Assembly (NCBI GenBank): GCA_964514585.1 | Contig: CAZETU010000001.1 | Coordinates: 165,184 to 229,183, forward strand | Direction: 5' to 3' | DNA from: Candidatus Woesearchaeota archaeon | Lineage (GTDB): Archaea > Nanobdellota > Nanobdellia > Pacearchaeales > GW2011-AR1 | Length of the DNA: 64,000 nt | Shown here: positions 42,518 to 63,816 of the stretch, in pieces | How positions within the stretch are numbered: position 1 is the first letter of the stretch | Layout of the letters: each line of letters opens with the position of its first letter | The notes under the pieces: generated by a model | The model's input: only the letters and a program-made list of their open reading frames with translations | Told to the model about the DNA's origin: nothing | The model's database searches: none | Program-made: the position numbers and the translations under genes

Positions 42518-44679
42518 TTATGCAGTAACTATAGTTCCTTCAGTAGCAGATGTGCCTTTTATCTTAGTTCCGACAGTTGTATCAACGTCTTCATTAATCA
42601 AATAAGTAACACCCTTTTCTGTATCAGGAGCATTGTAACCAGCAACTAATAGAGCAGTCTTTCCAGATCTACTAAAAGATTGGATCAAAAACTCACCAGC
42701 AGCGATACCTGTAGCAGATGTAAATGCAGCTTCACTGTATGCACCACCAAGTAACTCAGCAGCAACAGCGTTGATAGCAGAACCACCAACAACAATCAAG
42801 TTCTTTCCAGCAACAGTAGCAACAGCGTTGTCCATTACCGTCATAACACCAGCCTCTGTAGATGTACTAGCGTCACCGCCAGCAACAACAGAAACACGTG
42901 CATAAACTCGATCACTTGGAACACTAAAGACAATCTCATCGTTATCCAAGTTAGCCTCTGGAGTCTGGATAATCTGACCGTTTGTAGTCATGATATCGTT
43001 ATCATAAGTACCAACAGCAGTACCGCCAACAGTTAAGTCACCAGCAAGACCATCCTCTTTATCAGTAGTTTCACTGTCTCCACCGAACCACTTCAATTTA
43101 CCAGCAGTACCTGTCAAATTAACACCACCAACATCAATAGTAAATGGTTGAGCAGCCTCACCGTCAACGAAAGTTATCATCAAGTTACCATTTGTAACAG
43201 AAACATTCATTGCAACAGTAGTATCACCAGAAATCAAATCACCAATATCTTGACTAACAATATCTGCAGTAGCAGTATTATTACTGTCTGAAGTATGTGC
43301 TACAGAGAACCTTGGTCTGATAGAATCTTGAATAGTTCCATCAACGTCACTATAGAACACTTCTAACGAAGAGTTAACTTGAGTTCCTTGTGTCGCATCT
43401 GTAGAACTAGCCCATCTAAGATAAATCTTAGAAGTTTCTTGACTAAGTGTCTTTAATACGATAGAGTCCTTAACTCCATCAGTAGACTCAATAATCAAAA
43501 CAGGAGCATCTAATGTATTAGCAGTAGATGTCAAATCAGTATTGTTCCATAAGTCTTCTGTATCATCGAAGTAGATCTTGAAGTCTTCGTAAGTCACATC
43601 AGTTGTGCCTAAGAATTTAACTTCACCGAAGTTTTCTGGAAGCAAGTAACTTCCACCTTCGTAAACTACATCGTCAGTATCTCTAGTCTCCTTTTGGTTG
43701 TATTTCACACCAACGTAACCATTAACAGAGCTTAGGTCAGCCATAGTCCAAACCCAAGTTGGGTCGTCCTCGTCTTCGCCAATATATTCTTCTCCATCAC
43801 TATAAGTCTTGGAAATTTCTTTACCAGCCTTTATAATGATTTTGCTAAGTTCAGGAGCATTAGAATGATATCCTACAGTGTCAACCTTAACCTTTATGCC
43901 ACCAATCTTCTTAGTTGAACCTGCTGTGATAATCTCTCCATTAATTTGTGCTTTCCCCTCGAAAACATCATCAACTGTAAGAGTCACACCGTCAACGGTA
44001 GTACTCTCTCCAATTGCAAGAGAAATTTCATCAGAAGTAACAACTGTAATAGTAGTATTGGTCATAGAATCAATCTCATATTGCTTTCCAAGAAGAGTCA
44101 AGTAAAGAACGTCAGCAGTACCGCCAGCGGCAGCCCAATCTGCAGTTACATTAAAAGCATCGTCAAATACATATCTGTATTCAAGAGCTTTATCATTAGT
44201 CATAGCAAGAAGTTCACTAAAATCATTATCATCTAATGTAGTTTTAATGGCCATCGTACCAACTCTAATCTCTTCATGAATGTTATAATCATCAGCACCA
44301 GAAGCACCACCGTCATCCCAGTTGAGTTTTGTGTCAAGTAGAGAATCGATCTTACTATCTGTAAGTGTAGATGTTATTTTAGAAGCAGCACTAGACGTAG
44401 TTAAATTAATATAACCACCAAGAGCAACTTCATCTTCTGTAACTCCAGTAGCACCTGTTAAAGTTGTAACAGAACCACCTGCAGTTGCAGCATCCAAATT
44501 AGAAGCAATACTAGAAGCAGCAATATTGTCTGAAGGAGCTGCGTTAGCACCAACAACAATTGCAGTGTTACTTGTAAAAGGAGCCGGGTAAGAAGCAGCA
44601 ACAGCTGTACCTACAGTAGCACCTATTAAAGCAGCACTTCCTAATACTGTAATAGCTTTTCTAAATATTTTTTTCATTA
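42518..44679 (-). CDS. S-layer-like secreted protein (T/G/A/V/D-rich, Cys-free), start reassigned to MKKIFRK
   Basis: Strong Shine-Dalgarno AAAGGAGGT lies 11 nt upstream of the ATG at 44677-44679. Signal peptide MKKIFRKAITVLGSAALIGATVGTAVAAS. 720 aa. Confidence 0.6.
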
Positions 44680-44884
44680 TTATTAAACCTCCTTTCAGTA
44701 CCATTAGCTTAGCCGCCTTGTTCAAGGCCGTGGTAACCCACGTTCAACGTTTCTAATAGTCTGGCAGGATCTTATAACTAGGGAGCGTTATAAGTTGTCA
44801 TCTCTAGGGTGTCCCTATATGTACACTGACTAGTCAATGCATTATTGATAAACAATAACGCCTGACTATAACATCCATTTTTCC

Positions 44885-49593: not shown

Positions 49594-52026
49594 TTACAAA
49601 AAATCCTGAGTCGGTCTCACAACAACCGAACAATCAGCGTCCTCATTTCTAAAGGCATCACGACACTTAATATAATAAGTCTCCTGATCATTCCACTCAG
49701 CAACGTGAACACTAGAATTAGAATAAGGCATCTCAACTCCCTCATCAAAACTAAAGTCACAATTATTAAACGAATAAGCACACTCACTATCCCGAACAGT
49801 CACAAGCTTCAACATCTGATCTTCCTCATAAATCCTCGCAACAACCGGCGCATTAGTATCAACATCCAAAGTAAAACTCGCAATATCTAAAGCTAAATTC
49901 CCACCCTCATCGATACACTTAACATAATAATCATGCTCACCACCAACCAAATCTAACCTCTGCGTATGAATTCCATCATCAGTATTCGTATCATAAAACA
50001 TAATGTAGTCATTCTCATTACCAGTCTCAGAATAATAACAAACCGACCGACCATTATTACAACCATAAATCGTCTCAGCATATAACTCAACAGGCGCAGG
50101 ACTAACAGCCCCAAAAATGGTCCCATTAGGCATCAATCTTCTCAACTTCAAACCAGTGCTCCCTCTGAGGCTAAACTTAAAACTCTCTTTATTCTCATTC
50201 CTATCATTCTCTTCAACTCCAGGCTGATCCTTACATCTTACATAAAAGTCAGCTCCATCCCTAGGAATCCCACTAAGCTCACCTTGACAAGTAAACAACT
50301 GCGCCGCATTCATTTGATAAAGCTCACTCGAACAACTCATCTCATTTTGCATATTATCATAATCCTGATCCTGAGTACTCCACCTACAAGTCGACGGCTC
50401 ATTAACATAAAACTCAACCATAGCAGTATCCTGTTCCTCAGCAACACACCCACCATTAACAACCGAAGTAGCCTTAACCTGCGGAGCAGTCACGTCTGGC
50501 GACGGATCAATACAAAACCGAATAGCATACTCAGCCGAATTCTCATTCCCATTCTTATCCTTACACCTCAAATAAAACGTCAAATCCTTCCCATTCTCCA
50601 AAACAAGACCAGTCCCCTCAATCTCAGCAGCCCCAGGCAAACTAAACTTCTCCGAATGATTATAAGAATACAAATTACTCGACCCCACATAACTAATCAT
50701 CTCATCAAATGTCTCAGTATGATTAAAATCAATCTTACACTGCGCTGGCTCATTAACAGTAATCCCAAACTCCAACGGTGTAAACGCTTTTAAGCACCCA
50801 TCACTAGATTCTAAATTAACAATCTTAAATCCAGGACCAGGCGGCGAAATCTTAACATCAGTATACTTATGCCCCAAACTAAGCTCATTATAATTCGGCT
50901 TAATCACAGGCATATCAACATCCCGAGGATTAATATTCACACACTTCTCATCCACTGTTCCCTCATTAACAATCTCACAATTCTGTCCCAAAGATTTACA
51001 CCTATACTCAGAACAAGGCAAAGAGTCATCATTACAAATCTCACAATCATTCCCTCCCGACGGAGCCTGCCACGGCATACACTCAAAAGTCACAACCTCA
51101 GTATCCATCTTCTGATACATAGCAACAAAAACAACAGCCCCAATCCCAACACCAACCAAAGGATTAGAAAGCCACTTCCAAGACTGCGACTCAAGAATTT
51201 TACTATAAGTAGAAAAAAACCTATAAGATCCAGCTCCAGCGGCCAAAGCCGTAGACAAAGCCTCAGTATTTTGTTCCTCCATCCCAAACAAACTTCCAAT
51301 CATCTGACCAGCAAAATAAGCAATTCCTGCCCAAACCAAACCAGAGACAGCTGCATCAGCAAAAGTTCCTTTAATAAGTCCAAGATGAGAAGATCCAAAT
51401 TTAGTACTAGTTTGGCCAGCACTAGTAACCGGAGTCTTAGCAACAACGGAAGAAGTTCCTTCAACAGTTTTTGTAACACCATTAGAATTAGTAACGACCA
51501 TATCATAAGTACCTTTTTCAGCACCAGCAGTAACAGTGGCAGTTGTTCCGTCACCTAAAGCTGCAGTTTCAATACCTTTCTCTCCCATGTATTGTAAGGT
51601 TCCACCATTATAAGTTCCAGCAGGAAGTTGGGTTGTTAAGTCAGCAGCATAAGTAGTGGTTCCAGACCAAGAGCCCGTATTGCCCGAGGCGTAATTCGTA
51701 ACATCAACCTTAGGAGCATTAGAAGGAGGAGTTGGAAGTTTTGAAGTTTCCCCAGCCCCAGCGGATCCCTTAAGTCCCCCAGCACCACCAGTCTCAACAG
51801 TAGAGGTTCCTGCTTCTGCAGCATGTTGAGATGTAATAACACTACCATCGCCAATTATACCATCACCATTAATATCATATTGAAGGTCAACTTCACTAGG
51901 AGTGCCAGCACTAACAAATTCAATATTCCCAATCATAAATGCAAACGCAAAAACAGACAAAATAAACAAGCCTAATTCAAAACTAGCAACGGATTTTTTA
52001 ACAAATAAATCAGACCCTTTTTTCAT
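49594..52026 (-). CDS. Large Cys-rich surface protein, 'module B' paralog (signal peptide, G/A/S-rich TM region, Cys-rich C-terminal domains)
   Basis: 810 aa. After the TM region, FECMPWQAPSGGNDCEICNDDSLPCSEYRCKSLGQNCEI is paralogous to FECKPWQAPSGADDCEKCNGDPLKPCSEYRCASLGAACEI in the 1262-aa protein. Confidence 0.55.
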   Translation of the reverse strand: MKKGSDLFVKKSVASFELGLFILSVFAFAFMIGNIEFVSAGTPSEVDLQYDINGDGIIGDGSVITSQHAAEAGTSTVETGGAGGLKGSAGAGETSKLPTPPSNAPKVDVTNYASGNTGSWSGTTTYAADLTTQLPAGTYNGGTLQYMGEKGIETAALGDGTTATVTAGAEKGTYDMVVTNSNGVTKTVEGTSSVVAKTPVTSAGQTSTKFGSSHLGLIKGTFADAAVSGLVWAGIAYFAGQMIGSLFGMEEQNTEALSTALAAGAGSYRFFSTYSKILESQSWKWLSNPLVGVGIGAVVFVAMYQKMDTEVVTFECMPWQAPSGGNDCEICNDDSLPCSEYRCKSLGQNCEIVNEGTVDEKCVNINPRDVDMPVIKPNYNELSLGHKYTDVKISPPGPGFKIVNLESSDGCLKAFTPLEFGITVNEPAQCKIDFNHTETFDEMISYVGSSNLYSYNHSEKFSLPGAAEIEGTGLVLENGKDLTFYLRCKDKNGNENSAEYAIRFCIDPSPDVTAPQVKATSVVNGGCVAEEQDTAMVEFYVNEPSTCRWSTQDQDYDNMQNEMSCSSELYQMNAAQLFTCQGELSGIPRDGADFYVRCKDQPGVEENDRNENKESFKFSLRGSTGLKLRRLMPNGTIFGAVSPAPVELYAETIYGCNNGRSVCYYSETGNENDYIMFYDTNTDDGIHTQRLDLVGGEHDYYVKCIDEGGNLALDIASFTLDVDTNAPVVARIYEEDQMLKLVTVRDSECAYSFNNCDFSFDEGVEMPYSNSSVHVAEWNDQETYYIKCRDAFRNEDADCSVVVRPTQDFL

Positions 52027-52576: not shown

Positions 52577-52705
52577 ACAAACTACAAGAATTCAAACTTT
52601 AAAAGCTTTTCGATTTGTCATCACTCTTAAGAGACAAAGAAAGAAATTATTTAATTCTAATTAATCCATAGGTAAATTTTTATAACACTATTCTCTATTA
52701 AATAT

Positions 52706-53722
52706 ATGGATCTCATTAAACCAAAAAACTTGGAAAGGGGAGACACTATAGGAATTATTTCTCCTTCGGGAGGCCTAGCTCCGTTCGCTCCTCACAGACT
52801 AGATAATGCAATTAAATTCTTAGAAAATCAAGGGTATAAAGTAAAAGAGTTTTCTTGCACGAGGAAAAATAATGGATGGGAATCAGCTCCAGCAGAGGAA
52901 AGAGCCAAAGATATAATGGCCGCATTTTTAGACGAAGAAGTAAAGGCAATTATATGTTCAATAGGTGGGAACACTCTAAATAAAGTATTAAAATATCTAG
53001 ATTTCGGAAAAATCGGAGAAAACCCAAAAATATTATGTGGGTATTCAGATATAAGCGTTCTTCATTATGCAATATTAAAAAAGACAGGGCTATCAACTTT
53101 TTACGGTCCATGTATGATGACCCAGTTTGGAGAGTATCCAAGTCCTCTGAGCTATACTATAGAATATTTTAACAAAGCAATTGTAAATGGGAACATTGGA
53201 GAAGTAGAATCATCAGAAGAATGGACTGGAGAAACCCTAGATTGGTTTGCAAAAAAAGATCTAGAAAGACCTAGAAAATTATCAAAAAACCCGGGCTATA
53301 AATGGCTAAAAGAGGGTAAAGCTAACGGAGAATTAATCGGCGGGTGTCTCCATTCCATAGCACACTTAATAGGAACAGAATATTGGCCAAATCATAATGA
53401 AAAAATTTTATTTATAGAAACACCAGAAGGGGAAGACTTCAAGAAAAGCGAATCACTGGCCGAAATTGATGCTCAGTTAGCAGACCTCGAAATTGCAGGG
53501 ATTTTTAAACAAATAAAAGGCTTGGTGATAGGAAGACCTTTTGGCCAATCAGAAAAAGAAGTCGAAAAATTCAAAGAAGCAATTCTTGATAACACTAAAG
53601 ATTACAGTTTCCCAATTTTATTCGGGATAGATATAGGACATACTGATCCCCAAATAACAATTCCTTTAGGAGCAAATGCAGATTTAGATTCCGAGAAAAA
53701 TTTATTTATGATAAACAAATAA
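52706..53722 (+). CDS. Peptidase S66 family (LD-carboxypeptidase LdcA / microcin C7 immunity MccF-like)
   Basis: Contains IISPSGG, IICSIGGNTLNKVL, nucleophile motif GYSDISVLH and C-terminal His region GIDIGHTDPQ. Confidence 0.75.
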   Translation: MDLIKPKNLERGDTIGIISPSGGLAPFAPHRLDNAIKFLENQGYKVKEFSCTRKNNGWESAPAEERAKDIMAAFLDEEVKAIICSIGGNTLNKVLKYLDFGKIGENPKILCGYSDISVLHYAILKKTGLSTFYGPCMMTQFGEYPSPLSYTIEYFNKAIVNGNIGEVESSEEWTGETLDWFAKKDLERPRKLSKNPGYKWLKEGKANGELIGGCLHSIAHLIGTEYWPNHNEKILFIETPEGEDFKKSESLAEIDAQLADLEIAGIFKQIKGLVIGRPFGQSEKEVEKFKEAILDNTKDYSFPILFGIDIGHTDPQITIPLGANADLDSEKNLFMINK

Positions 53723-53726
53723 TCTA

Positions 53727-54830
53727 CTAATTAACTTCATCTCTCCCAACTTCTCGAACCCCAGCGCTTGAAACAATAATTTTTTTTGGAACTCCAATAT
53801 AGTCTGAAAATTTTGCCTTCGTTGTTCTTCTTGTTCTACGGTCATCAAGTAAAACACGCCCGCCTTCAGATCTTATTTTTTCATAAACTTCTCTAGTTCT
53901 AGCATAAACATCTTCTGAATCACCAAACATTAAAACAGAAGTATCAAATGGTCTTATCTCTTCAGGCAAGTCAAACCCCCTACTGTCTCTCGAAGCATCA
54001 AATGCAGAGTAAAGCATTCTTTCAATACCCATAGAAAATGATCCCAAAACAGGAAAAACATTTTCATTTTTATCGTTAGTGAATTTCAAAGATCTAACTC
54101 TTGGAACGTATTCATATCCCATGGCTAAACTTAATGCCTTATTTTGCTGATCATCCCAATTAACATTATCTCCCTCGGGGCATTTATAGAAATATTCCAA
54201 ATCAAAATCTAAATGAGGCCCTCTTCTAACGTTTTCACCTCTCTTTCTTTTTGTTGCTTTGATCCCCAATCTATCAAAAAGACCTTCACAGGCTGATTCA
54301 TATTGATTAAGTGAAAGGCCAAATCTTCTTCTATCCTCATCAAGAGATAGCATTGCACAAACCTCAAACTCTCGCAATTTTAAAATTCCTCGAGGATCTT
54401 TTATAGGTCTTAGTAGACTCTTATAAAAAAATAATCTCAATGGCAAAGTTCTATAAGAGACAGTATCTCTGTTTAGCCAATCGACAATTTCCATTTCATG
54501 GGTTGTAAGCCCTATATACTTTTCCATTGGGCTAGGCAAAGTAACAAACTTTCTCTCGAAAGTATCTTGGATTTCTGTTCCATCGTTTAAAACTTCACGT
54601 TTCATATAACTAGGAATTTCAATATGTAACGCGTCCATTCCTTCATGGCTTTCTCTAACTAATCTAGTAAGATTATCTCGTACCATAGATCCAATTGGAA
54701 GAGAAAAAGGCAATCCAGGATTCTTAAAAGAGAAAAAAACTCCCCGCTCTAAAAGATCAGATGTTCTAAAATCTTGAAAATTATTAGGAATTTTAAATGA
54801 ATTTGGAAAAGGCAACTTACTTATTCTCAT
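53727..54830 (-). CDS. Class IIa aminoacyl-tRNA-synthetase-like paralog (minimal catalytic core + anticodon-binding domain; ProRS/ThrRS/GlyRS-like)
   Basis: Motif-2-like RGILKLREFEVCAM (REF hallmark). Motif-3-like GSFSMGIERMLYSA. C-terminal class-II anticodon-binding-domain pattern VLMFGDSEDVYARTREVYEKIRSEGGRVLLDDRRTRRTTKAKFSDYIGVPKKIIV. Only 367 aa. Confidence 0.55.
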   Translation of the reverse strand: MRISKLPFPNSFKIPNNFQDFRTSDLLERGVFFSFKNPGLPFSLPIGSMVRDNLTRLVRESHEGMDALHIEIPSYMKREVLNDGTEIQDTFERKFVTLPSPMEKYIGLTTHEMEIVDWLNRDTVSYRTLPLRLFFYKSLLRPIKDPRGILKLREFEVCAMLSLDEDRRRFGLSLNQYESACEGLFDRLGIKATKRKRGENVRRGPHLDFDLEYFYKCPEGDNVNWDDQQNKALSLAMGYEYVPRVRSLKFTNDKNENVFPVLGSFSMGIERMLYSAFDASRDSRGFDLPEEIRPFDTSVLMFGDSEDVYARTREVYEKIRSEGGRVLLDDRRTRRTTKAKFSDYIGVPKKIIVSSAGVREVGRDEVN

Positions 54831-55657
54831 TTTATTCTTTTAGAAGTATAAAGCTCCGAATCTTCCCAAGCCATTTTATTAGAGAGTATCATTATGTCAT
54901 ATCCCATCTTTGATAAATTTTCTCTAAATAAAAACATGTATTCCTTGTAGTTTTTCATTAATTTTTCTAAAGTTTCTGGGAGTAAATCATTAAGGTGTTT
55001 TCTGTTTAATATATCCTCGACAAATCCACTTACAACACCATCCTTAATATAATCAAATTTAAAACTAAGTTCAACATATTTTTCTAAACCAGGCAAATCA
55101 AAAAACTTAATCCAATCTTTCTTATAGAGTGGTGTTATATCTACATGTATTGCTTTTGAAACATCTTCAATTAGTTTTTTAGATGGAACCTCCATATAAT
55201 ACATAGGAACTGCTACAATAAATCCAGATTTTTTGCAAACTCGTCTACATTCCTCAAACGCTTTTTCTCTATTGGACATTAAAGAAAGCACATTGCCAAC
55301 TATTACCAAATCAAATGTTTCATCTTCAAAGGGAAGAGAATTAACATCTGCTTTTTTAAATCTAATATTGTCCAATTTCTCCACATTAGCTCTTTTTGCC
55401 GCCTCTTTTAGACTCATTTCGTTTATATCTATAGAAATTAATTTGCAGGGAATCAGTTTGCTTAATTCAATCGCGGTAAATCCAGTACTGGTCCCAATTT
55501 CTAAAACCTTACTGTATCTATCTATACAAGTTCTATTTGCAATTTCAAAAACAGTATTTCTCCCACCCGGGATCCTGTTTGTTTCTTTAGTTAAGCCAAT
55601 TAATTGATTGTAATCCATTTTATCAATATCATCCGCTGTTAATTCTTCAATTTTCAT
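54827..55657 (-). CDS. Class I SAM-dependent methyltransferase
   Basis: Motif I VLEIGTSTGFTAIELS and motif IV-like DLVIVGNVL. ATGA overlap with the downstream gene. Confidence 0.65.
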   Translation of the reverse strand: MKIEELTADDIDKMDYNQLIGLTKETNRIPGGRNTVFEIANRTCIDRYSKVLEIGTSTGFTAIELSKLIPCKLISIDINEMSLKEAAKRANVEKLDNIRFKKADVNSLPFEDETFDLVIVGNVLSLMSNREKAFEECRRVCKKSGFIVAVPMYYMEVPSKKLIEDVSKAIHVDITPLYKKDWIKFFDLPGLEKYVELSFKFDYIKDGVVSGFVEDILNRKHLNDLLPETLEKLMKNYKEYMFLFRENLSKMGYDIMILSNKMAWEDSELYTSKRIK

Positions 55658-55658
55658 T

Positions 55659-56816
55659 TTAAGGTTTTAAAGTTCCATCAACTCTTGGGAATTGATTAGC
55701 GCTCCAAATAAATGGCATTTCTAAAAGACCCTGTAAAAATCTCTCCCATCCAAGTCCAAATCCAGACGTTTCTTTATAATTATTTAATTTACGAGTTTGA
55801 AGGTATGGTTCATAATCTTCTTTTGGAAGATTAAATATCTCAGATTTTTCTTCGAGCTCTTCTCTAGACCTAACCCTATGTCCACTTCCAATAGTTTCTC
55901 TATATCCTGGCCAAATAATATCTGAATTATTAGCCACTTTTGGGATTTTACCATCTATCATAGAATGATAAAAAGGAACCTCTAAGAGAGGGAATTCTCT
56001 GATTAAAACCATATTCCCCATTATTTCTGTAATTTTAATTTCTTCCCAAGATCCAAAATGCTTAAGTGTAAATTCTTTATATTTCTCTTCGCCCGTTTCT
56101 TTGTATAAAATTTCTAGCGCCTCCTTAAATGTAATTTTCGGTATCTCTAATATGTTCTCGGCAAATTCGCCAAGTTCTCCTAGCTTCTCTTTAGATAAAA
56201 AATATGCTAAGTCCTCATTATTTTTTACCAACAAATCTTCTATTATTTTTTTAAGCAAATTAAGAGCAATAAATTCATTCTCCTTTTGATTAACTTTCCC
56301 TTCATATTCTATATGGTGGAATTCAGACAAGTGAGTTGCATCAGATATCTCTTTCCTGAATGAATTATAAATTGAATAAACATGATTCACACCACTTTGC
56401 ATCATTGCAAGCTCCAAATAAATTTGTGAAGATTCTGACAGAAAAGCTTTTTTGGGCAAGTTAAACCAATCAAGAGTTATTGGACATGTATCTGTTGTGT
56501 AATTCAAAGCCTCTTTGCCATAAACCGCTCCAGGAGAAGATATCATTCTTGTAGTCATTGGAAGTGCAGTAAAAAGGGCATTTAAGTTATCGAAATATTC
56601 ATTTGCAGAAAGATTTATCCTATGATTAATTTTAGCTATATGTCCCCACATTTCATCTTCATTAAATTGATTAACTCTTTCTTTAAACTTTTCAATGGGA
56701 GGAACTACAGATAAAACATTATCAATTTTTGAGAATACCTTATTCCCTTTATAGGAAATTGTCCCATCTTTATTTGCAGTATATGGACCTAACATAAGAA
56801 AAGAACAAATTCTCAA
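55659..56816 (-). CDS. Class IIb aaRS catalytic-core paralog (AsnA / AsnRS-AspRS-like, no anticodon-binding OB domain)
   Basis: Motif 2 SFRKEISDATHLSEFHHIEYEG and motif 3 SGFGLGWERFLQGLL. 385 aa with a ~55-aa N-terminal leader and no OB-fold. Confidence 0.65.
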   Translation of the reverse strand: MRICSFLMLGPYTANKDGTISYKGNKVFSKIDNVLSVVPPIEKFKERVNQFNEDEMWGHIAKINHRINLSANEYFDNLNALFTALPMTTRMISSPGAVYGKEALNYTTDTCPITLDWFNLPKKAFLSESSQIYLELAMMQSGVNHVYSIYNSFRKEISDATHLSEFHHIEYEGKVNQKENEFIALNLLKKIIEDLLVKNNEDLAYFLSKEKLGELGEFAENILEIPKITFKEALEILYKETGEEKYKEFTLKHFGSWEEIKITEIMGNMVLIREFPLLEVPFYHSMIDGKIPKVANNSDIIWPGYRETIGSGHRVRSREELEEKSEIFNLPKEDYEPYLQTRKLNNYKETSGFGLGWERFLQGLLEMPFIWSANQFPRVDGTLKP

Positions 56817-56871
56817 TTTAAAAACATTACTATAGAATAGTTACAGTCAATTCTATACAATTTTATCTTTT

Positions 56872-58653
56872 CTATACCCGACCACTAATAGCCGCAATCA
56901 CTCTTCCAGAAAACCCACCACTAACAATATTCACAGTATTCGGAGCAAACTCTTCCTCGCTCCCATCAACAGTCCAGACATATCCATCATCAGTATATTC
57001 TCCCTGATAATTAACATAACCACCACAGTCACCTAGAGCAGTACAAATCCTATTAGCCCCAAGAGCCCATTCCTCTTCCAAACACTCACATCCCTCAACA
57101 CACTTCCAATTATCATCAAGCAAGCCCTTTTCATAAGTCACAATACATTTAGCACTAGCCTGCCCACAAATCTGCGACGCACTTCCCTCTTCCCAAAAAG
57201 CAAGTCCAGGCGGAAAATTAGGCAAACAAACCCCGCTAGCTCTATTAGTCACAGTTTTCTCAACTACTTCTTCATCATCATCTCCACCAAAAATAGACTT
57301 CCCAGTTATCGGAGCAACAACATTCCCAGTATAAGTCGGATTGCTAAACGATCCAGTCGAAGTAGGATTAGAATAAGTCGAACTACCAACTCCACCACCA
57401 TCACTACTTCCAGCCCCAATTAAAAGCCCAGCAATCGAAGGCTCCCAAATACAATCCCTCCTATCAATATTCAAACAATCATCCTCATCCTCTTGAGCCG
57501 TACAATCCTGCCACCTATTAACTCTACATCCAGAAGTCCCAAAATCCCCAGCGCTCGTCTCAATATAACTCCACAAACAAATCTCATTCCTATAATCAGC
57601 ACAAGGCTCAACCCTCACCTCACCATCAACACAAGTTTCCCTAAAATACCTCGACCCAACCTGGTCGTTCCCCTCGCCAACATTATCATCATAAACACAC
57701 CACGCTTCCCCATTAATTCTTTTCTCACCATCAGCATCCACACACTCAGTCCTCTGACAATAATAATCACTATCCGCAGGCCCACCAAAAACCCCTTCCC
57801 ACTCAGCACACCGCGACCCTAACATATAATCACAGTTCCCACAATTCTTATTCGACCCATCATTAGGATCACAAATATCGTCAGCCTCGGCAACCTTCCC
57901 ATTATTCCAACTCCTAACCTTATCCGAAGAATAAATATTCTCCCTATTCCCACAAGAATCAATCCAATAAACCTGACCCCGATAACACGAAGTAGAAGTC
58001 TGCTTAGCACAAGACGTACTTAATTCCTCAGCCGAACAAAGAAAGTCCTCATAAAAAGTCCTCTGCTCCGACAAGGCAACTTCAGTACCATTCACCGTCT
58101 CAACTCTCTCCCCAGCCCCACAATCAGCCCGAGTCGTAAATTCACAAACCCTATCAAAATCCTTCTCATAAACACAAGCACCCATATCCTGAGCCTGTGC
58201 CGTTGCAATACAACTAACCTCATTAGTTATATCAGACCTATAATCATTCTCAACTCCAAACAGCGTCGACAGTCTCTTACATCGAACCAACGGAACAAAC
58301 GCAGCCTGATCAGCAATTATACAACATCCCAACTGACACTGCGGCACCTCTTCAACACTTCGAGAATCCCACGTCCCACCAGCGTCCGAACAAACTCTCT
58401 GCGGCGTATTCCCCATACAAATTCCTTCCTCACTATCATAACAAGTCCCAAGCTTACAATAAGAAGTAGTCTCACAAGACGTCGGCGAACTCTTAAATCC
58501 AGAATCACAAGTTTCCTCAGGAGCATTAATACACCATCCACCACTCTCAGTCTTTTCACAACAAAAACTCGGGTCAGACATCACAGTCTCAGCAGCAACA
58601 CTAAAAGTAAAACAAACCACAAACACACTCATCAACAAACTCAACTTATTCAT
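56872..58653 (-). CDS. Secreted Cys-rich surface protein, 'module A' paralog
   Basis: Signal peptide MNKLSLLMSVFVVCFTFSVAA. Motifs CGNC, VYWIDSCGNRENIYSSDK, EPCADYRNEIC and LGDCGGYVNYQGEY are shared with the N-terminal half of the 1262-aa protein. Confidence 0.55.
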   Translation of the reverse strand: MNKLSLLMSVFVVCFTFSVAAETVMSDPSFCCEKTESGGWCINAPEETCDSGFKSSPTSCETTSYCKLGTCYDSEEGICMGNTPQRVCSDAGGTWDSRSVEEVPQCQLGCCIIADQAAFVPLVRCKRLSTLFGVENDYRSDITNEVSCIATAQAQDMGACVYEKDFDRVCEFTTRADCGAGERVETVNGTEVALSEQRTFYEDFLCSAEELSTSCAKQTSTSCYRGQVYWIDSCGNRENIYSSDKVRSWNNGKVAEADDICDPNDGSNKNCGNCDYMLGSRCAEWEGVFGGPADSDYYCQRTECVDADGEKRINGEAWCVYDDNVGEGNDQVGSRYFRETCVDGEVRVEPCADYRNEICLWSYIETSAGDFGTSGCRVNRWQDCTAQEDEDDCLNIDRRDCIWEPSIAGLLIGAGSSDGGGVGSSTYSNPTSTGSFSNPTYTGNVVAPITGKSIFGGDDDEEVVEKTVTNRASGVCLPNFPPGLAFWEEGSASQICGQASAKCIVTYEKGLLDDNWKCVEGCECLEEEWALGANRICTALGDCGGYVNYQGEYTDDGYVWTVDGSEEEFAPNTVNIVSGGFSGRVIAAISGRV

Positions 58654-58970
58654 TTTAATTCCCCCTTTATTTTTACAATTACTTTCTTTAAGGATGGCAA
58701 TTCGTTAATCAGTTCCATAATTACTTCCATAGGTACATCATTATATACATGACTTATTAAATTTCTACAGGCATAAAACTTTTTCCAATTAATCTCATTA
58801 TGTTTCTTTATAATCTCACGAGGCAATTTATCAATATTTTCTCCTATAACCTGAAATCTCATAAGCATAGCATCCCAAACCGTCTTATCCTCCAATGATT
58901 TATTCAAATCTCCCTCAATCCTTCCAATCATCTCCTTAATCAAATTTAAATTTAAACTATATTTTAACAT
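58650..58970 (-). CDS. hepT: HepT-like HEPN/DUF86 toxin
   Basis: R-x4-H-x-Y motif CRNLISHVY. 106 aa, overlapping the upstream MNT gene and the downstream gene. Confidence 0.65.
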   Translation of the reverse strand: MLKYSLNLNLIKEMIGRIEGDLNKSLEDKTVWDAMLMRFQVIGENIDKLPREIIKKHNEINWKKFYACRNLISHVYNDVPMEVIMELINELPSLKKVIVKIKGELK

Positions 58971-59250
58971 AAACCACCTCTTTCTTTATATAATTTAATT
59001 CAGGTCTCAACGATTGAGAAGAAACCAAGTCAATTTTTCTCTTAAACAAATTTTCTAAATAAAATAAAACCTCAAAATAATTTTTACCCAAATTCTCTTT
59101 TTCAAGAGTAACCAAAAAATCAATATCACTTCCTCTCTTCTGTGTTCCTTTTAGATATGAACCAAATAACCCAATTTTTTTTACACCCCTCGCTTTCAAC
59201 TTTTCTTTTCTTTTCTCAATCTCACTAATTATTTTTTTCTTATTCATCAT
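58957..59250 (-). CDS. mntA: MntA-like minimal nucleotidyltransferase antitoxin
   Basis: Contains GLFGSYLKGTQKRGSDIDFLV (GS...D-x-D). Start reassigned to the ATG at 59250-59248, which overlaps the upstream TGA (ATGA). Confidence 0.7.
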   Translation of the reverse strand: MMNKKKIISEIEKRKEKLKARGVKKIGLFGSYLKGTQKRGSDIDFLVTLEKENLGKNYFEVLFYLENLFKRKIDLVSSQSLRPELNYIKKEVVYVKI

Positions 59251-60008
59251 GCATACCCCGGAGGCCAAGCCAAACTTCGACTAGCAAATTTAAATTTATT
59301 TCCATAAACCTTATTCTCCAACATGTAAACAGTAGTGCCATCTCCACGCTTAATTTTATCAATCACATAATCAGGATAAAAGCCCATCATACTCGTCACA
59401 TCACTATCCCCATACTTAACTTCAAATTGTAAAATCGAAGTCGCAATCATCAAAGTTTCATAAAGCGCAGAATTTATTCGAACATTAAACTTCGTAAATC
59501 TCTGACTACCAACGGTAGTAGGAGCATTAACCTCAACCCTAATCACACCAGGCTCAATCACAACATCATAATTAATTTCCCCACTCACAACATCATAACC
59601 CTGAGACTTCAGTTCATTAATCGAATTACTATAACAAGTATCCATACTATCCCGAATAGAAATCTCCAACTGATCATCAAAAGTCTGCTTCAAAAACGGC
59701 CTCTGCACAGTACAAGTCTTATAATATTCACTAGTATAGCAAAGATAAGTCAAGTCCTCTCCCTTATACGCATAAGTAAACTCAGGATCAATCAACCCAG
59801 CCTTCGCCTCAAGATCCTCCATCACCTGCTCAACTGCATCCTCAATACAAGATTCAAACCCAAGCTTCTTCCCTTCTTGAGAAAAATAAGTCGGCCGCGC
59901 CCACAAAAAGAAAACCAAAATAGCCGAAACAATAACAATCGCCACTAAAATAAACATAGTCACCTGACCCTTTTTGCCACTGCCCCTTTCCATGCTCATT
60001 ATAGCCAT
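59247..60008 (-). CDS. Class III signal peptide (pilin-like) protein
   Basis: N-terminus MERGSGKKGQVTMFILVAIVIVSAILVFFLW. Confidence 0.45.
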   Translation of the reverse strand: MAIMSMERGSGKKGQVTMFILVAIVIVSAILVFFLWARPTYFSQEGKKLGFESCIEDAVEQVMEDLEAKAGLIDPEFTYAYKGEDLTYLCYTSEYYKTCTVQRPFLKQTFDDQLEISIRDSMDTCYSNSINELKSQGYDVVSGEINYDVVIEPGVIRVEVNAPTTVGSQRFTKFNVRINSALYETLMIATSILQFEVKYGDSDVTSMMGFYPDYVIDKIKRGDGTTVYMLENKVYGNKFKFASRSLAWPPGYA

Positions 60009-60027: not shown

Positions 60028-63000
60028 TCATAATGCACGAGCAGTAATAGAGCATTCCCTAGGAATATTTCCAAACTCGTCCTCGCACTTAATATAATAA
60101 GTATCCCCCCGAGTCGTAGAAAATGAATGCGTCTCCCCTACACCAAGCATTTCACCACTGTCCCAATCAAACCTACAAGTGCTAGTTGAATACCGACAAT
60201 CCGCATCTTCATTCGTCACAATATACATCGTCCCACCATTCTGCCAAACCCGAGCAACCTGCGGCGTCGAAGTATCATGAATAATCCTAAACTCAGTCTC
60301 GCCCCTCACAAAATCCCCAGTCTCATCCGTACACTCAATATAAATATGATTAGTCACAGCCGGCCGATTCAACATCTGCTCATGACTATTACTCTCGCCA
60401 GTCTCAAACATCTGAATCATATTCTCATATCCCGAAAACGAATAAGAACACCAATGATACTCGGCCCCACCAGAAGTATCAACTTCAACATAAATCGTCG
60501 TCACAGTCGTATTAACCTCAAAGTCTTCACTCGGTTCAATTGAATCAATCGCAATCTTTCTCTCAGGCTTCCGAAGCTCATAAACAAAACTCTCAACATT
60601 AGCATTCCTCTCAGTCTCATCAACAACCCACGGCTGATCCATACACTTCACATAATATGTATTCGTCCCATTAGAAACCGGTAAAATATCACTACAAGTA
60701 TATCCCAAAGGATTCGACGGCCGCGCCAAAGTATCATTACAAATCATAGAGTTAGCCATGGCTCCATAATCAACATCCGTAGAACTCCACTTACAAGTCG
60801 ACAACTCATTCGTCACAATACTAACATCCTGCGAAGTTTTCTCAAACCCAATAATCAAATCATTCTTTGGCTCACTCCCACGAATCATCGGCGCAGTCAC
60901 ATCATCACCCTCGACAACACAAAGATCAACCGTATAAAATCCAGGACTCTCATGCCCCTTAACATCTCTACATTTCACATACAGCGTCATATCCCCATTC
61001 CAATCAGCACCCTGACTCTGCCCATGACTAGGATCAGGCAAAAGAAAACTAGTCGTATGATTCCGAATATAAGAATTCCCACCAAGGTCAAATTCCATAT
61101 TCTCAAACTCATTCATAGCAATATCAAACTTACACTGCGCCGGCTCATCAGTCGTAATCCCAAAAACCAACTGAGTATAAGCATCAATGCAACCCCCTCC
61201 AGAAGTAATACTAAAACCGCTTTCACTAATACTAGTATATTCCTCATCTTCAGAAATCATACTTATCGAAGGCCCCAAAACAGGCGGATTAACATCATCA
61301 GGACTCCCATCAACACACATCTCATCCTCAGTCCCCTTATTGATAATCTCACACGCAGCCCCCAAGCTCGCACAACGATATTCAGAGCACGGTTTCAACG
61401 GGTCACCATTACACTTCTCACAATCATCAGCCCCACTCGGAGCCTGCCACGGCTTACACTCAAACTGAACCTCAATCGGGTCACAATCATCCCCTCCAAA
61501 AAATAAAGAAACAATAACCAAGACAACACCTATTATAAATAAAGCAAGACCAAGCACAGGGATGCCCAAAAGAGGAGCGCTATTAGTCAAAAGAGCATAC
61601 CCAGCAATTCCACCTATAAGCCCGCCACCAATAGACATAAGTAAAGATCCGCCGGGACTAAGACCCAAAGATTTCGCAATCATAGCTCCAGCAATCATTC
61701 CAATTCCAAGTCCAATAGCAAATCCAGCGAAAGGAGCCAAGCTTCCAGCCGCCCCAAGTACACTCGTGGACTGAGAAATTGTAGCAACTGCAGAAATTCC
61801 CTCGAGCGCAAGGGCTCCACTCAAAGAACCAATAGTAGAAACAAGTGAAATAAATCCTGCAGCATACCCAATACCAACAGCCCCCATTCCAATATTATTC
61901 ATTAAAGTATCCTCCCCCAATTCCCCAACAGGAGTTTCCAAATCCCCAATCAATCCAGCAGCCTCCAAAAATTCTGTATAATCTTCGACTTCAGCAATTT
62001 GTCCAGGAACAGGCGCAGACATTTTAATCAAATCAGAAATATATTTAGTGCTTAAATCTGGAGAGTTCCTAAGTTTATAATTATCATTATATTCCCCCAA
62101 AATATTTACAGAGCCCCCACAATCCCCAATACCTCTACACATATCATTCATCTCCTCAACAAATCCCGCTCCCAAACATCCTTTATTCGCAACAATCTCG
62201 CATCCTCCCCATGTCTTAGGCTTATACACAACCGTACACGTCTGACTCGCAATCCCACAAAGTTGTTTAGCTGTCATCTCATACCTCTCGTCCCGAAGAT
62301 TAAATCCGCCAGGATATCTAGGCATACAAACATCAAAACTAAACTTATCAGCAATTTTAACTTCCTCAACTCGACAATTCAAAGTATCCGCACATTCTTC
62401 CATCACATCTTTATCCCCATTCATATCAAGACACTTCCTCCAATTATTAGCAATACAAGCCGCATTCCTAAATTCAACTTCATTCCCCTGGACATCAAAA
62501 GTATTAGTCTGCACACAAATCTGATTTCTATAATCAGCACAAGGCTCTATTTGGACAACACCTTGAGAACAAACATATTTCCAATGCCGACTCCCAACAA
62601 CATCATCTCCATCATCAATCTTCCCATCATACTCACACCATGATTCACCATTCCCATAAATCTCACCCTTAAACTCACAAGACGTTGACCGACAATAAAA
62701 ATTTCCATTATCTACATTAAAATTATCTTCCGAGGCAGATGCACAAATCCCCCCAATAAATCGATTACAATTCCCGCAACTTTCAGAATTAGCATTGCCA
62801 GTTTTGCTAAAATCCCCACAAACATCTTCAGGCTCAGCAACCCTCTCCCAATAATTATAATCATTTAACTTCGACGAATCATAAATATTAGCATAATTCC
62901 CACAAGAATCCAAAAAATAAACCTCATCCTTGCCATCAACACAAGTCGTTTGATCAGTCTTCTCACAAGACGTATTCAAAACCTTAGCTGTACATAAATA

Positions 63001-63816
63001 CCCCTCATTAAACTCACCATTATAACTAAAACAATCGCTCTCCGTAATAAACTTACAATTACCCCCGGCCAAAACACAAGCTCCCTCAGTCTGAATCGAA
63101 GACATCGCCGCACATTGCCCCTCATTAACCTCAGGCCTCCAATCAGTTACAGAATTAGGCCCAAGTGCCAACTGCGTCGTATCAACCTCACATTGTCCCC
63201 GTGTTTCAAAAATAGTTTCAGTTCCAAGAATACAACAGCCAAGTCGCGCCTCAAGCATATTACAATTAGGATCAGCTACCCAACTCGTCGGACAATCACC
63301 CTCTAAAACACTCCTATCATAAATTCCCAAACTCTCATCATAGCAACACCCCTTCTTACAAAAAGAAGTAGAAGCGCACAGACTCCCCTCGGCAAAAGGG
63401 GACGTCTCTACGCAACTCAACGGAGCAGAAGTGGCGCATTTCTCTCCATTCTTAGCTAAAAAGCAACACCCGACATTAGCGGCATTGGACGAGATTGAGA
63501 AAGATTCCACAGTAACTTCCTCAGTTAAAATATAACCGGTTTCGAGTGTCAAATTTATTTCTCTTGCCGAAGCCAACGGCAAGATTGGTTCTTTCAAACC
63601 CTCCACAATTGCATCTGAAAGTTTCCTAAAAATCGACTTCGCCGGCTTAATATCCAACGTAGCCATTCTTTCCGCTATCTGTCTATCTCTCTCTTCATAC
63701 TGCTTATCCAATTCTTCAAAAACTCCATCCGTTGCAGCAATCCCATAAGAAAATGCAAACATAGCCAAAAGCATCAAGGTCAATTCAAAACTCGCAACTA
63801 TCTTTTTACCTTCCAT
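60028..63816 (-). CDS. Giant (1262 aa) Cys-rich surface protein: module A + Gly-zipper multi-TM region + module B in one polypeptide
   Basis: The N-terminal half is paralogous to the 593-aa protein, sharing the motifs CGNC, EPCADYRNQIC and GDCGGSVNILGEY. The central region is G/A/S/I/L-rich and hydrophobic. The C-terminal half is paralogous to the 810-aa protein from FECKPWQAPSG onward. Confidence 0.6.
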   Translation of the reverse strand: MEGKKIVASFELTLMLLAMFAFSYGIAATDGVFEELDKQYEERDRQIAERMATLDIKPAKSIFRKLSDAIVEGLKEPILPLASAREINLTLETGYILTEEVTVESFSISSNAANVGCCFLAKNGEKCATSAPLSCVETSPFAEGSLCASTSFCKKGCCYDESLGIYDRSVLEGDCPTSWVADPNCNMLEARLGCCILGTETIFETRGQCEVDTTQLALGPNSVTDWRPEVNEGQCAAMSSIQTEGACVLAGGNCKFITESDCFSYNGEFNEGYLCTAKVLNTSCEKTDQTTCVDGKDEVYFLDSCGNYANIYDSSKLNDYNYWERVAEPEDVCGDFSKTGNANSESCGNCNRFIGGICASASEDNFNVDNGNFYCRSTSCEFKGEIYGNGESWCEYDGKIDDGDDVVGSRHWKYVCSQGVVQIEPCADYRNQICVQTNTFDVQGNEVEFRNAACIANNWRKCLDMNGDKDVMEECADTLNCRVEEVKIADKFSFDVCMPRYPGGFNLRDERYEMTAKQLCGIASQTCTVVYKPKTWGGCEIVANKGCLGAGFVEEMNDMCRGIGDCGGSVNILGEYNDNYKLRNSPDLSTKYISDLIKMSAPVPGQIAEVEDYTEFLEAAGLIGDLETPVGELGEDTLMNNIGMGAVGIGYAAGFISLVSTIGSLSGALALEGISAVATISQSTSVLGAAGSLAPFAGFAIGLGIGMIAGAMIAKSLGLSPGGSLLMSIGGGLIGGIAGYALLTNSAPLLGIPVLGLALFIIGVVLVIVSLFFGGDDCDPIEVQFECKPWQAPSGADDCEKCNGDPLKPCSEYRCASLGAACEIINKGTEDEMCVDGSPDDVNPPVLGPSISMISEDEEYTSISESGFSITSGGGCIDAYTQLVFGITTDEPAQCKFDIAMNEFENMEFDLGGNSYIRNHTTSFLLPDPSHGQSQGADWNGDMTLYVKCRDVKGHESPGFYTVDLCVVEGDDVTAPMIRGSEPKNDLIIGFEKTSQDVSIVTNELSTCKWSSTDVDYGAMANSMICNDTLARPSNPLGYTCSDILPVSNGTNTYYVKCMDQPWVVDETERNANVESFVYELRKPERKIAIDSIEPSEDFEVNTTVTTIYVEVDTSGGAEYHWCSYSFSGYENMIQMFETGESNSHEQMLNRPAVTNHIYIECTDETGDFVRGETEFRIIHDTSTPQVARVWQNGGTMYIVTNEDADCRYSTSTCRFDWDSGEMLGVGETHSFSTTRGDTYYIKCEDEFGNIPRECSITARAL

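Follow-up and report, generated by a model that had tools for sequence, protein, structure and literature searches.

The window analysed here is a stretch of 64,000 nt from a Candidatus Woesearchaeota archaeon (contig CAZETU010000001.1, positions 165,184 to 229,183 of the forward strand). At its positions 52706-56816 it carries a block of four genes, which is a compact mobile member of a family of gene clusters in which the agrocin 84 (agn) cluster of plasmid pAgK84 is the sole characterised one. We hold the assignment of the block to the agn-type cassettes with high confidence. In addition, two enzyme families of the block, those of MccD and MccF, are common to the microcin C (mcc) operon. 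Judged from homology, three coupled genes most likely make, and an MccF-type peptidase most likely protects against, a small nucleotide that mimics an aminoacyl-adenylate. The four genes, numbered along the window, are as follows.

52706-53722, plus strand: S66, an MccF-type S66 peptidase of 338 aa, convergent to the three-gene operon
53727-54830, minus strand: ProL, a class IIa ligase of 367 aa derived from prolyl-tRNA synthetase (ProRS), without the INS editing domain
54827-55657, minus strand: MT, a class I transferase of 276 aa dependent on S-adenosylmethionine (SAM), of the AgnB1/MccD family
55659-56795 (listed to 56816), minus strand: AsnL, an AgnA-like truncated core of asparaginyl-tRNA synthetase (AsnRS), 378 aa from its ATG

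All four open reading frames (ORFs) are intact, and the junctions read from the sequence are those given in the first-pass annotation of this DNA, that is, a 1-nt gap between AsnL and MT (TAA-a-ATG) and a 4-nt overlap between MT and ProL (ATGA). The stop codons of S66 and ProL are convergent and lie 4 bp apart.

AsnL and the AgnA-like lineage

AsnL matched PF00152 with an E value of 4e-31. Its motifs FRKE and GFGLGWER (motifs 2 and 3) were intact and no OB anticodon-binding domain was present, as had been noted before for this class IIb core. Against the NCBIfam asnS model it reached 142 bits, compared to a cut-off of 414. The BLASTP alignment of AsnL with AgnA of pAgK84 covered 345 aa at 26% identity (E 1e-22), and in a neighbour-joining tree AsnL and AgnA formed a clade with bootstraps of 100/100, apart from the bona fide AsnRS and aspartyl-tRNA synthetases (AspRS) of the same loci. 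Moreover, AsnL has an active-site signature that was common to 60/60 sampled AgnA-like proteins and absent from real AsnRS and AspRS. In this signature, the Glu-Gly of the flipping loop of the synthetases is replaced by Ser87-Pro88 in AsnL, the first Gln of the QSxQ motif by Glu121 (Asp in the AgnA-like proteins), and the Thr ahead of the conserved Arg by Gly303. The residues for ATP/Mg and for the side chain of the substrate were retained (R147, E149, E163, D292, E300, R307, and R352), and the two that contact the Asn/Asp side chain, E163 and R307, were invariant in the AsnL/AgnA-like proteins of every cluster type. The best Foldseek matches of the AsnL model were AsnRS and AspRS.

The first-pass annotation had called this gene AsnA-like, and its simplest reading was an AsnA-type archaeal asparagine synthetase, standing by chance beside a methyltransferase, a ProRS remnant, and a peptidase. 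The databases do call AgnA-like proteins 'asparagine synthetase A', and AsnL keeps E163 and R307. Nevertheless, the AsnA equivalog models gave at best 101.6 bits against cut-offs of 309-389 (389 for the best model), and the archaeal AsnA structures matched only the C-terminal third of AsnL at E values of 3e-7 to 1e-6 (phmmer), weaker than AsnRS at 6e-20. Furthermore, the linkage of AsnL to both MT and S66 was found in 16/27 well-flanked loci of different phyla and domains, the genes are translationally coupled, and ProL is intact and sits in a conserved family. AsnL was thus rejected as an AsnA, and the reading of an asparagine synthetase beside unrelated genes is disfavoured to the point of being highly improbable. 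By sequence, AsnL is placed in the AgnA-like lineage.

MT and the S66 peptidase

MT matched the Pfam families Methyltransf_11/25/31, in line with its earlier description as a class I SAM methyltransferase. It was 43% identical over its full length to AgnB1 of pAgK84 (E 9e-74), the product of the gene directly 3' of agnA. The identity to E. coli MccD was 34% over 185 aa (E 5e-28), in an alignment that takes in the segment ahead of the Rossmann fold, and the phmmer comparison of the two gave 79 bits. The methyltransferase of the Xenorhabdus cluster described below scored 234 bits. MT gave no match to AgnC3, the unrelated methyltransferase of agn. In a PADLOC scan of the four proteins for known anti-phage defence systems, MT had a generic methyltransferase-domain match (mad2) and the other three had none.

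The S66 protein matched PF02016 (E 4e-37) and PF17676 (E 5e-31), and its nucleophile motif, predicted earlier as GxSD, reads GYSD. Its best matches in the PDB were MccF and MccF-like proteins of B. anthracis and E. coli (E 5e-59 to 4e-48), compared to E values of 7e-27 to 1e-6 for the true LD-carboxypeptidase chains. The LdcA equivalog model gave 114 bits with a cut-off of 378. When the S66 protein was used in a tblastn search of plasmids, it found agnC5, annotated 'MccF-like', on pAgK84, and the two proteins were 34% identical (E 1e-65). On this plasmid the order is agnA, the SAM methyltransferase gene (AgnB1), and agnB2, which encodes a leucyl-tRNA synthetase (LeuRS); agnC1 is annotated there as well. 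The residues S118, H311, E243, and W186 of E. coli MccF correspond to S114, H312, E238, and W180, and they were invariant in the 8 aligned proteins. Four MccF residues that may bind the Asp side chain (N220, R246, K247, and R254) were not conserved, and no conclusion was drawn from them. The first-pass annotation had left the choice between the MccF and the murein LD-carboxypeptidase groups to be checked; by these comparisons the S66 protein is classified as MccF-type. In processed microcin C the aspartate is removed by MccF, whose W186 stacks against the adenine (PMC8323819).

Since stand-alone MccF homologues giving microcin C resistance are common in bacteria (PMC8323819), the block could be an island that serves resistance only, in which an exogenous aminoacyl-nucleotide antibiotic is detoxified by hydrolysis and modification and nothing is produced. 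A block without exporter or carrier-moiety genes would agree with such a role. However, the homologues AgnA and AgnB1 come from a producing cluster, in which AgnA is the proposed former of the P-N bond. Furthermore, AsnL, MT, and ProL form a tightly coupled operon, and an ATP-dependent ligase has no obvious part in detoxification. We consider resistance without production very unlikely.

ProL, an intact member of a ProRS-derived family

ProL gave a weak match to PF00587 (30.8 bits), and the ProRS models matched its C-terminal anticodon-binding domain. The scores of three ProRS models were 108, 98, and 92 bits, with cut-offs of 558, 307, and 550, respectively. The 367-aa class IIa-like gene with a C-terminal anticodon-binding domain, whose exact relation had been left to profile searches, is therefore placed as ProRS-derived, below every ProRS cut-off. 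ProL aligned to residues 1-191 and 434-535 of E. faecalis ProRS, and the INS domain between them was missing. The arginines of motif 2 (R141) and motif 3 (R271) were kept, and the suspected loss of the fRxE Glu was borne out (LRPI, with RDE changed to RPI). This loss of the motif-2 Glu was found in the subfamily of ProL. The family alignment conserved the motif-1 Pro, T110 and E112 of the TxE loop, R141, F155, R271, and residues of the anticodon-binding domain.

The AlphaFold2 model of ProL had a predicted local distance difference test (pLDDT) score of 88 and a predicted template-modelling (pTM) score of 0.88. All of its top PDB matches (50/50) were ProRS, and the best one was the INS-less enzyme of R. 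palustris (2i4l) with a template-modelling (TM) score of 0.86, at a sequence identity of only 20%. A profile search among 1.84 billion representatives found about 45 clusters of 360-420 aa that ranked ahead of the first canonical ProRS by score. ProL is an intact member of a conserved, divergent ProRS-derived family and not a stray ProRS fragment, and the earlier suggestion of a degraded pseudogene does not agree with the conserved family and the confidently predicted ProRS fold.

Sister loci in archaea

The cassette was surveyed by scanning one genome per species with AsnL, which yielded 51 loci; their ORFs were called and mapped by phmmer. Several DPANN phyla are represented among the loci, as are Natrinema and Haloarcula, and further loci lie on contigs of metagenome-assembled genomes labelled bacterial (a gammaproteobacterium, Paenibacillus, Microcoleus, and Zixibacteria), whose binning was taken as labelled. 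Linkage was counted up to 6 kb from AsnL, in the 27 species-level loci whose flanks reached 5 kb or more on each side. Of these loci, 19 contained MT and 19 contained S66, with the two together in 16, and ProL was counted in 9. This answers the earlier proposal that neighbourhood conservation be checked across DPANN genomes. The order and orientation of the cassette genes differed among the loci. AsnL itself had 601 matches and is very common in DPANN, where over 100 clusters showed 65-84% identity; its close homologues are labelled Woesearchaeota, Pacearchaeota, or Nanoarchaeota. A scan of viral contigs with AsnL found no relatives. The cassette is widespread in DPANN archaea and conserved across domains, and its accessory genes are swappable.

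Homologues of ProL at 39-51% identity occurred in the same layout as in the window, AsnL-MT-(extras)-ProL with S66 convergent, and these loci adjoined unrelated genes, namely those of ribosomal proteins, glycolysis, and cation ATPases. In L011, L013, L018, L021, L054, and L057, a LeuRS-derived gene of 668 aa without editing domain stood between MT and ProL, at the position of agnB2. The gene of L011 was tried as a relative of AgnB2, but the match was weak (E 1e-8) and NCBIfam placed it as an archaeal-type LeuRS derivative; it was therefore recruited independently of AgnB2. Paralogues resembling lysyl- and methionyl-tRNA synthetases (LysRS and MetRS) were present in other AsnL loci. A bona fide INS-less ProRS stood beside the divergent ProL in L028 (502 bits) and L053 (473 bits; the TIGR00409 cut-off is 306.7), and bona fide AsnRS genes adjoined AsnL in L040, L043, and L048, with two each in L040 and L043. 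Radical SAM enzymes were found in several AsnL loci, and a pyridoxal phosphate (PLP)-dependent decarboxylase related to the N-domain of MccE in two.

Six loci labelled Patescibacteria, Paenibacillus, Microcoleus, or Zixibacteria (L021, L036, L038, L042, L044, and L061) encoded an AsnL 58-79% identical to the DPANN protein. They reflect either inter-domain transfer or mis-binned contigs.

In the two Woesearchaeota loci with paired AsnRS genes (L040:239-5816 and L043:3-4930), the two AsnRS were of distinct lineages and lay beside AsnL-MT, and no S66 gene was present. Such pairs could be a duplication of the target for self-resistance or a trace of the tandem ancestry of AsnL.

Bacterial relatives

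AgnA had 741 relatives, many of them from Streptomyces, Myxococcus, Xenorhabdus, and Burkholderia, and three of these contexts were opened, namely Xenorhabdus bovienii (L070:9001-19067), Myxococcus xanthus (L069), and Streptomyces virginiae (L068). The order in X. bovienii was an AgnA-like gene, MT, S66, a nucleosidase-family gene, two glyoxalases, LeuRS, a ProL ortholog, and a pump of the major facilitator superfamily (MFS). The LeuRS of this cluster scored 718 bits against AgnB2, and its ProL ortholog was 29% identical to ProL over the full length (E 2e-50, hhalign probability 100%). In M. xanthus, the AgnA-like gene was accompanied by a GNAT gene, a class IIa gene resembling an aminoacyl-tRNA synthetase (aaRS), and S66. 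The S. virginiae context contained MT, the AgnA-like gene, ATP-grasp enzymes, a decarboxylase, an APH-type kinase, a ParA-like ATPase, an MFS pump, and S66, and it has the decarboxylase, kinase, and ParA-like set in common with the DPANN locus L047. The AgnA/S66 core was common to all three clusters, which are apparently uncharacterised. Because these three contexts carry relatives of its genes, the window block is part of a family of clusters found in both domains, and ProL is a recurrent member of it.

These neighbourhoods bear on the possibility that ProL is a self-resistance gene, that is, a drug-insensitive ProRS comparable to AgnB2, in which case the product would be a prolyl-adenylate mimic directed against ProRS. 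ProL keeps a complete class II anticodon-binding domain and the ATP-binding arginines, it folds like a functional INS-less ProRS, and it occupies the position of agnB2 relative to agnA-agnB1. Resistant aaRS copies are a known immunity strategy, since AgnB2, a resistant LeuRS copy, gives immunity to agrocin 84 (PMC8323819, PMC4392301). However, ProL is far from a functional ProRS (98-108 bits against 307-558) and has lost the motif-2 Glu. The loci L028 and L053 hold a ProRS and a ProL side by side, so the two have different jobs. Moreover, the X. bovienii cluster and six DPANN loci have LeuRS-type genes along with their ProL orthologues, and there LeuRS would be the target. We regard a resistance role for ProL as unlikely.

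Composition and mobility of the block

The four-gene block had a GC content of 33.2%, compared to a window mean of 38.4% and 37-44% in the flanking genes, and it was the lowest-GC stretch of 4.1 kb in the window (0.4th percentile, about 3 standard deviations under the mean). The GC content at third codon positions (GC3) was 0.22-0.26 in its genes and 0.30-0.42 in most genes of the window. The distinct composition reported by the first-pass annotation is thus real, while its figures of about 30% against about 42% overstate the contrast. Low GC and GC3, together with the differing genomic contexts of the relatives, support that the cassette is horizontally mobile. Around the block, a search for the direct or inverted repeats expected of an insertion found only short matches at chance level.

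A housekeeping pathway of DPANN archaea would offer another explanation, for instance a tRNA-independent conversion, a non-canonical aminoacylation, or the synthesis of a modified nucleotide or cofactor. The 65-84% identity of AsnL across so many DPANN clusters, the bona fide AsnRS genes that adjoin it in L040, L043, and L048, the tRNA-binding-type domain of ProL, and the absence of an exporter from the window block all fit such a pathway. Nevertheless, the distribution is patchy across domains with differing neighbourhoods, the block has the lowest GC of the window, swappable accessories are typical of secondary metabolism and immunity, and the bacterial relatives come with pumps, non-ribosomal peptide synthetase neighbours, and resistant-type LeuRS. 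We think it improbable that the block serves housekeeping, and the related proposal of the first-pass annotation, a non-canonical aminoacylation or amidation pathway, found no positive support.

Proposed function

The other proposal made earlier for this block, an acquired module that makes or detoxifies an aminoacyl-nucleotide, gains support from the homology to AgnA, AgnB1, and AgnC5 and to MccD and MccF, as well as from the mobility of the cassette. With moderate confidence, we propose from these homologies that the cassette makes a nucleotide that mimics an aminoacyl-adenylate. In chemotype the product would correspond to agrocin 84, processed microcin C, and phosmidosine, that is, to adenosine with an N-acyl phosphoramidate, a class of compounds that inhibit aaRS. 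AsnL would bind ATP and a constant Asn/Asp-type substrate and form the nucleotide linkage, MT would alkylate the phosphate of the phosphoramidate with a methyl or a 3-amino-3-carboxypropyl group, ProL would supply the aminoacyl or acyl moiety, and S66 would hydrolyse the acyl/aminoacyl-N(P) bond, as self-immunity or as a step of the pathway. This detailed order of enzymes is doubtful.

The invariance of E163 and R307 holds irrespective of which accessory aaRS is present, so that the substrate of the AgnA-type enzyme is probably a constant one of Asn/Asp type, distinct from the variable moiety. The replaced residues at the alpha-amino and carboxylate ends of the substrate, together with the gained acidic residue, would agree with a substrate bound in another orientation, in which its amide nitrogen would attack the alpha-phosphate, and the acidic residue (E121) could deprotonate this nitrogen. 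In a more specific version, Asn would be the nitrogen donor, S66 would free Asp to leave adenosine 5'-phosphoramidate, and ProL would acylate the latter. Campylobacter offers a precedent in its O-methyl-phosphoramidate biosynthesis, where phosphorylation takes place on the amide nitrogen of Gln, and where Gln, ATP, and CTP yield a nucleoside diphosphoramidate (PMC6429109, PMC11800397). By analogy with this logic, Asn as a nitrogen donor is plausible. S66 may act either as a step of the pathway or purely in immunity, as in E. coli, and the two versions are not separable computationally.

A more general form of this proposal, which we put forward only tentatively, is that AsnL, S66, and MT constitute a universal route to nucleoside 5'-phosphoramidates in archaea and bacteria, with a swappable aaRS paralogue that acylates the nitrogen. 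AsnL would adenylylate the side-chain amide nitrogen of Asn, bound in an AsnA-type flipped orientation, after which S66 would free aspartate and the SAM enzyme would alkylate the phosphate. In the final step, the acylating paralogue would be ProRS-derived here and LeuRS-, LysRS-, or MetRS-derived elsewhere. The products would be non-hydrolysable aminoacyl-adenylate mimics, and that of the window a phosmidosine-like prolyl compound.

Several points weigh against the proposed synthesis of an aminoacyl-adenylate mimic or against parts of it. For the archaeal members no compound or activity has been reported, and their function rests on homology to an unsolved pathway. The window block has neither an exporter nor a resistant target aaRS, and it is without counterparts to the pentanamide genes of agn or to those for its sugar 'Trojan-horse' moiety. 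The unusual conservation and abundance of AsnL would also fit housekeeping. Besides, the neighbour-joining tree that joins AsnL and AgnA is based on a small sample, and the structure model of AsnL is of moderate quality (pLDDT 71) with poor active-site loops. ProL co-occurs with LeuRS-type genes in other clusters. Finally, AgnC1 has been described as remotely ProRS-like (PMC8323819), but its comparison with ProL gave an E value of 0.64 by BLASTP and a probability of 0.9% (E 0.063) by hhalign, and AgnC1 matched the X. bovienii ProL ortholog only locally (E 3e-4). ProL may still be a counterpart of AgnC1, but we do not claim it as the orthologue.

Gene starts, promoters, and neighbouring genes

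The true start of AsnL is almost certainly the ATG at 56795, which gives 378 aa, and not the TTG at 56816. This start is preferred because the homologues, all of about 378 aa, begin with an invariant MLGPY, and because the TTG abuts a TATA-like box, TTTTTAAA, at 56817-56824; gene callers chose the ATG in other assemblies. The two putative promoters are listed below, and their TATA-like boxes suggest two leaderless transcripts.

56796-56871, minus strand: putative promoter of the AsnL-MT-ProL operon, with TATA-like TTTTTAAA at 56817-56824, about 25 nt 5' of the ATG
52577-52705, plus strand: putative promoter of the S66 gene, with TATA-like TTTTTATAA at 52677-52685, about 25 nt 5' of the ATG

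The block interrupts a run of surface-protein genes, a setting already noted in the first-pass annotation. Large secreted proteins without a Pfam family flank it at 49594-52026, 56872-58653, and 60028-63816 (minus strand); the one at 56872-58653 is Cys-rich, and a protein with an S-layer domain is encoded at 42518-44725. A toxin-antitoxin pair of a HepT-like RNase and an MNT nucleotidyltransferase, with overlapping genes at 58650-59268 (minus strand), is wedged among the large surface-protein genes. Its GC content (0.28-0.29) is below that of the four-gene block, and the pair looks like a second small mobile insertion nearby. The window is archaeal and has genes for SecY, a Taw1-type wyosine enzyme, and an S-layer protein, besides an AMP-phosphorylase-like gene.

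Five AsnL loci that have no S66 gene encode, after AsnL or AsnL-MT, a conserved protein of about 300-340 aa, located as follows.

L035:11980-12963: protein of about 300-340 aa
L037:11148-12134: protein of about 300-340 aa
L043:5886-6863: protein of about 300-340 aa
L049:8056-8958: protein of about 300-340 aa
L050:11131-12159: protein of about 300-340 aa

The one examined, that of L035, had no match in Pfam or NCBIfam. This protein may replace the S66 peptidase in those loci.

Elsewhere, a HIT-family protein is encoded directly beside S66 in one DPANN locus (L011:10486-10932, minus strand), and in Natrinema gari a pair of ATP-binding cassette (ABC) exporter genes lies between AsnL and S66 (L051:11150-12969, plus strand). 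By analogy, the two are reminiscent of MccH-type immunity and of export.

Implications

The matches to AsnL (601) and AgnA (741) make the agn core a large cross-domain family, which is especially common in the genome-reduced DPANN archaea. To our knowledge, hardly any natural products are known from these archaea. As DPANN archaea are episymbionts, such a compound could act on their hosts or on competitors. The comparison of loci separates a constant three-enzyme core and thereby gives a short gene list for the unsolved formation of the P-N bond, and the pattern of a trio with swappable aaRS paralogues suggests a genome-mining route to new aaRS inhibitors. If the route proposed for the trio is true, it would explain how the P-N bond of agrocin 84 is formed, and DPANN archaea would be producers of antimetabolites that target aaRS. 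AgnA has been proposed to form this phosphoramidate bond in a pathway that is still unsolved (PMC8323819, PMC4392301). A review of 2021 reported agn-like clusters only in Ensifer and some actinobacteria (PMC8323819), and our literature searches found no publication that links them to archaea.

Comparison with known systems

The agrocin 84 cluster of Rhizobium rhizogenes K84 is the closest known system. AgnA is followed by AgnB1 in the order and orientation of AsnL and MT. Both systems have a truncated AsnRS without anticodon-binding domain, with the derived active-site signature in common, and both have an MccF-like S66 peptidase (AgnC5 in agn). In agn a LeuRS gene (agnB2) comes after the methyltransferase; a LeuRS-type gene is likewise found in the sister DPANN loci and, further downstream, in X. 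bovienii. However, agn has 17 genes and the window block four. No class I aaRS was detected in or adjoining the block by the ORF list and profile search, so that a counterpart of the LeuRS AgnB2 was not found, and the block with its immediate neighbours gave no match to the exporter (the AgnG pump), to the pentanamide-tailoring families agnC2-C4, C6, and C7, or to agnD/E/F. Furthermore, the host of agn is bacterial and that of the window archaeal, and AsnL is only 26% identical to AgnA. Because most agn genes are missing and the identity to AgnA is low, the product of the window is unlikely to be agrocin 84 itself.

The mcc operon of E. coli resembles the block in its MccD-family SAM transferase (34% identical to MT), in MccF with the catalytic triad and the adenine-stacking Trp as in S66, and in a peptidase gene that is convergent to the biosynthetic operon. 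The sister DPANN loci add an MccE-like decarboxylase and a HIT protein to this likeness. The difference lies in the MccA precursor peptide and the ThiF-like MccB. Neither was found in the block, where a profile search of its proteins gave no ThiF-family match and a class II aaRS core stands instead. Since the nucleotide-forming enzyme would be this core and not MccB, the route would be non-ribosomal.

Phosmidosine, the N-prolyl, O-methyl phosphoramidate of 8-oxoadenosine from Streptomyces durhamensis, is of a chemotype that fits the gene content of the block, with a proline-type ligase, a SAM enzyme, and a phosphoramidate-linked adenosine; the likeness is chemical only. The compound class of phosmidosine has been described (PMC6429109).

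Two single enzymes are similar to proteins of the block in architecture. Archaeal AsnA (PDB 1nnh and 3p8t) is a class IIb core without anticodon-binding domain, as is AsnL, but it is of a different lineage, and AsnL carries replacements at the positions by which real AsnRS and AspRS hold the alpha-amino and carboxylate ends of their substrate. The INS-less ProRS of R. palustris has the two-domain architecture and the fold of ProL, whereas ProL is without the motif-2 Glu, falls under all ProRS cut-offs, and sits in an archaeal cassette of biosynthetic type. The kind of system is known, namely the agrocin 84 and microcin C clusters for aaRS inhibitors, and the window carries a minimal archaeal variant of it without most agn genes. 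The most useful output of the comparison is the pattern of a constant trio with swappable aaRS paralogues.

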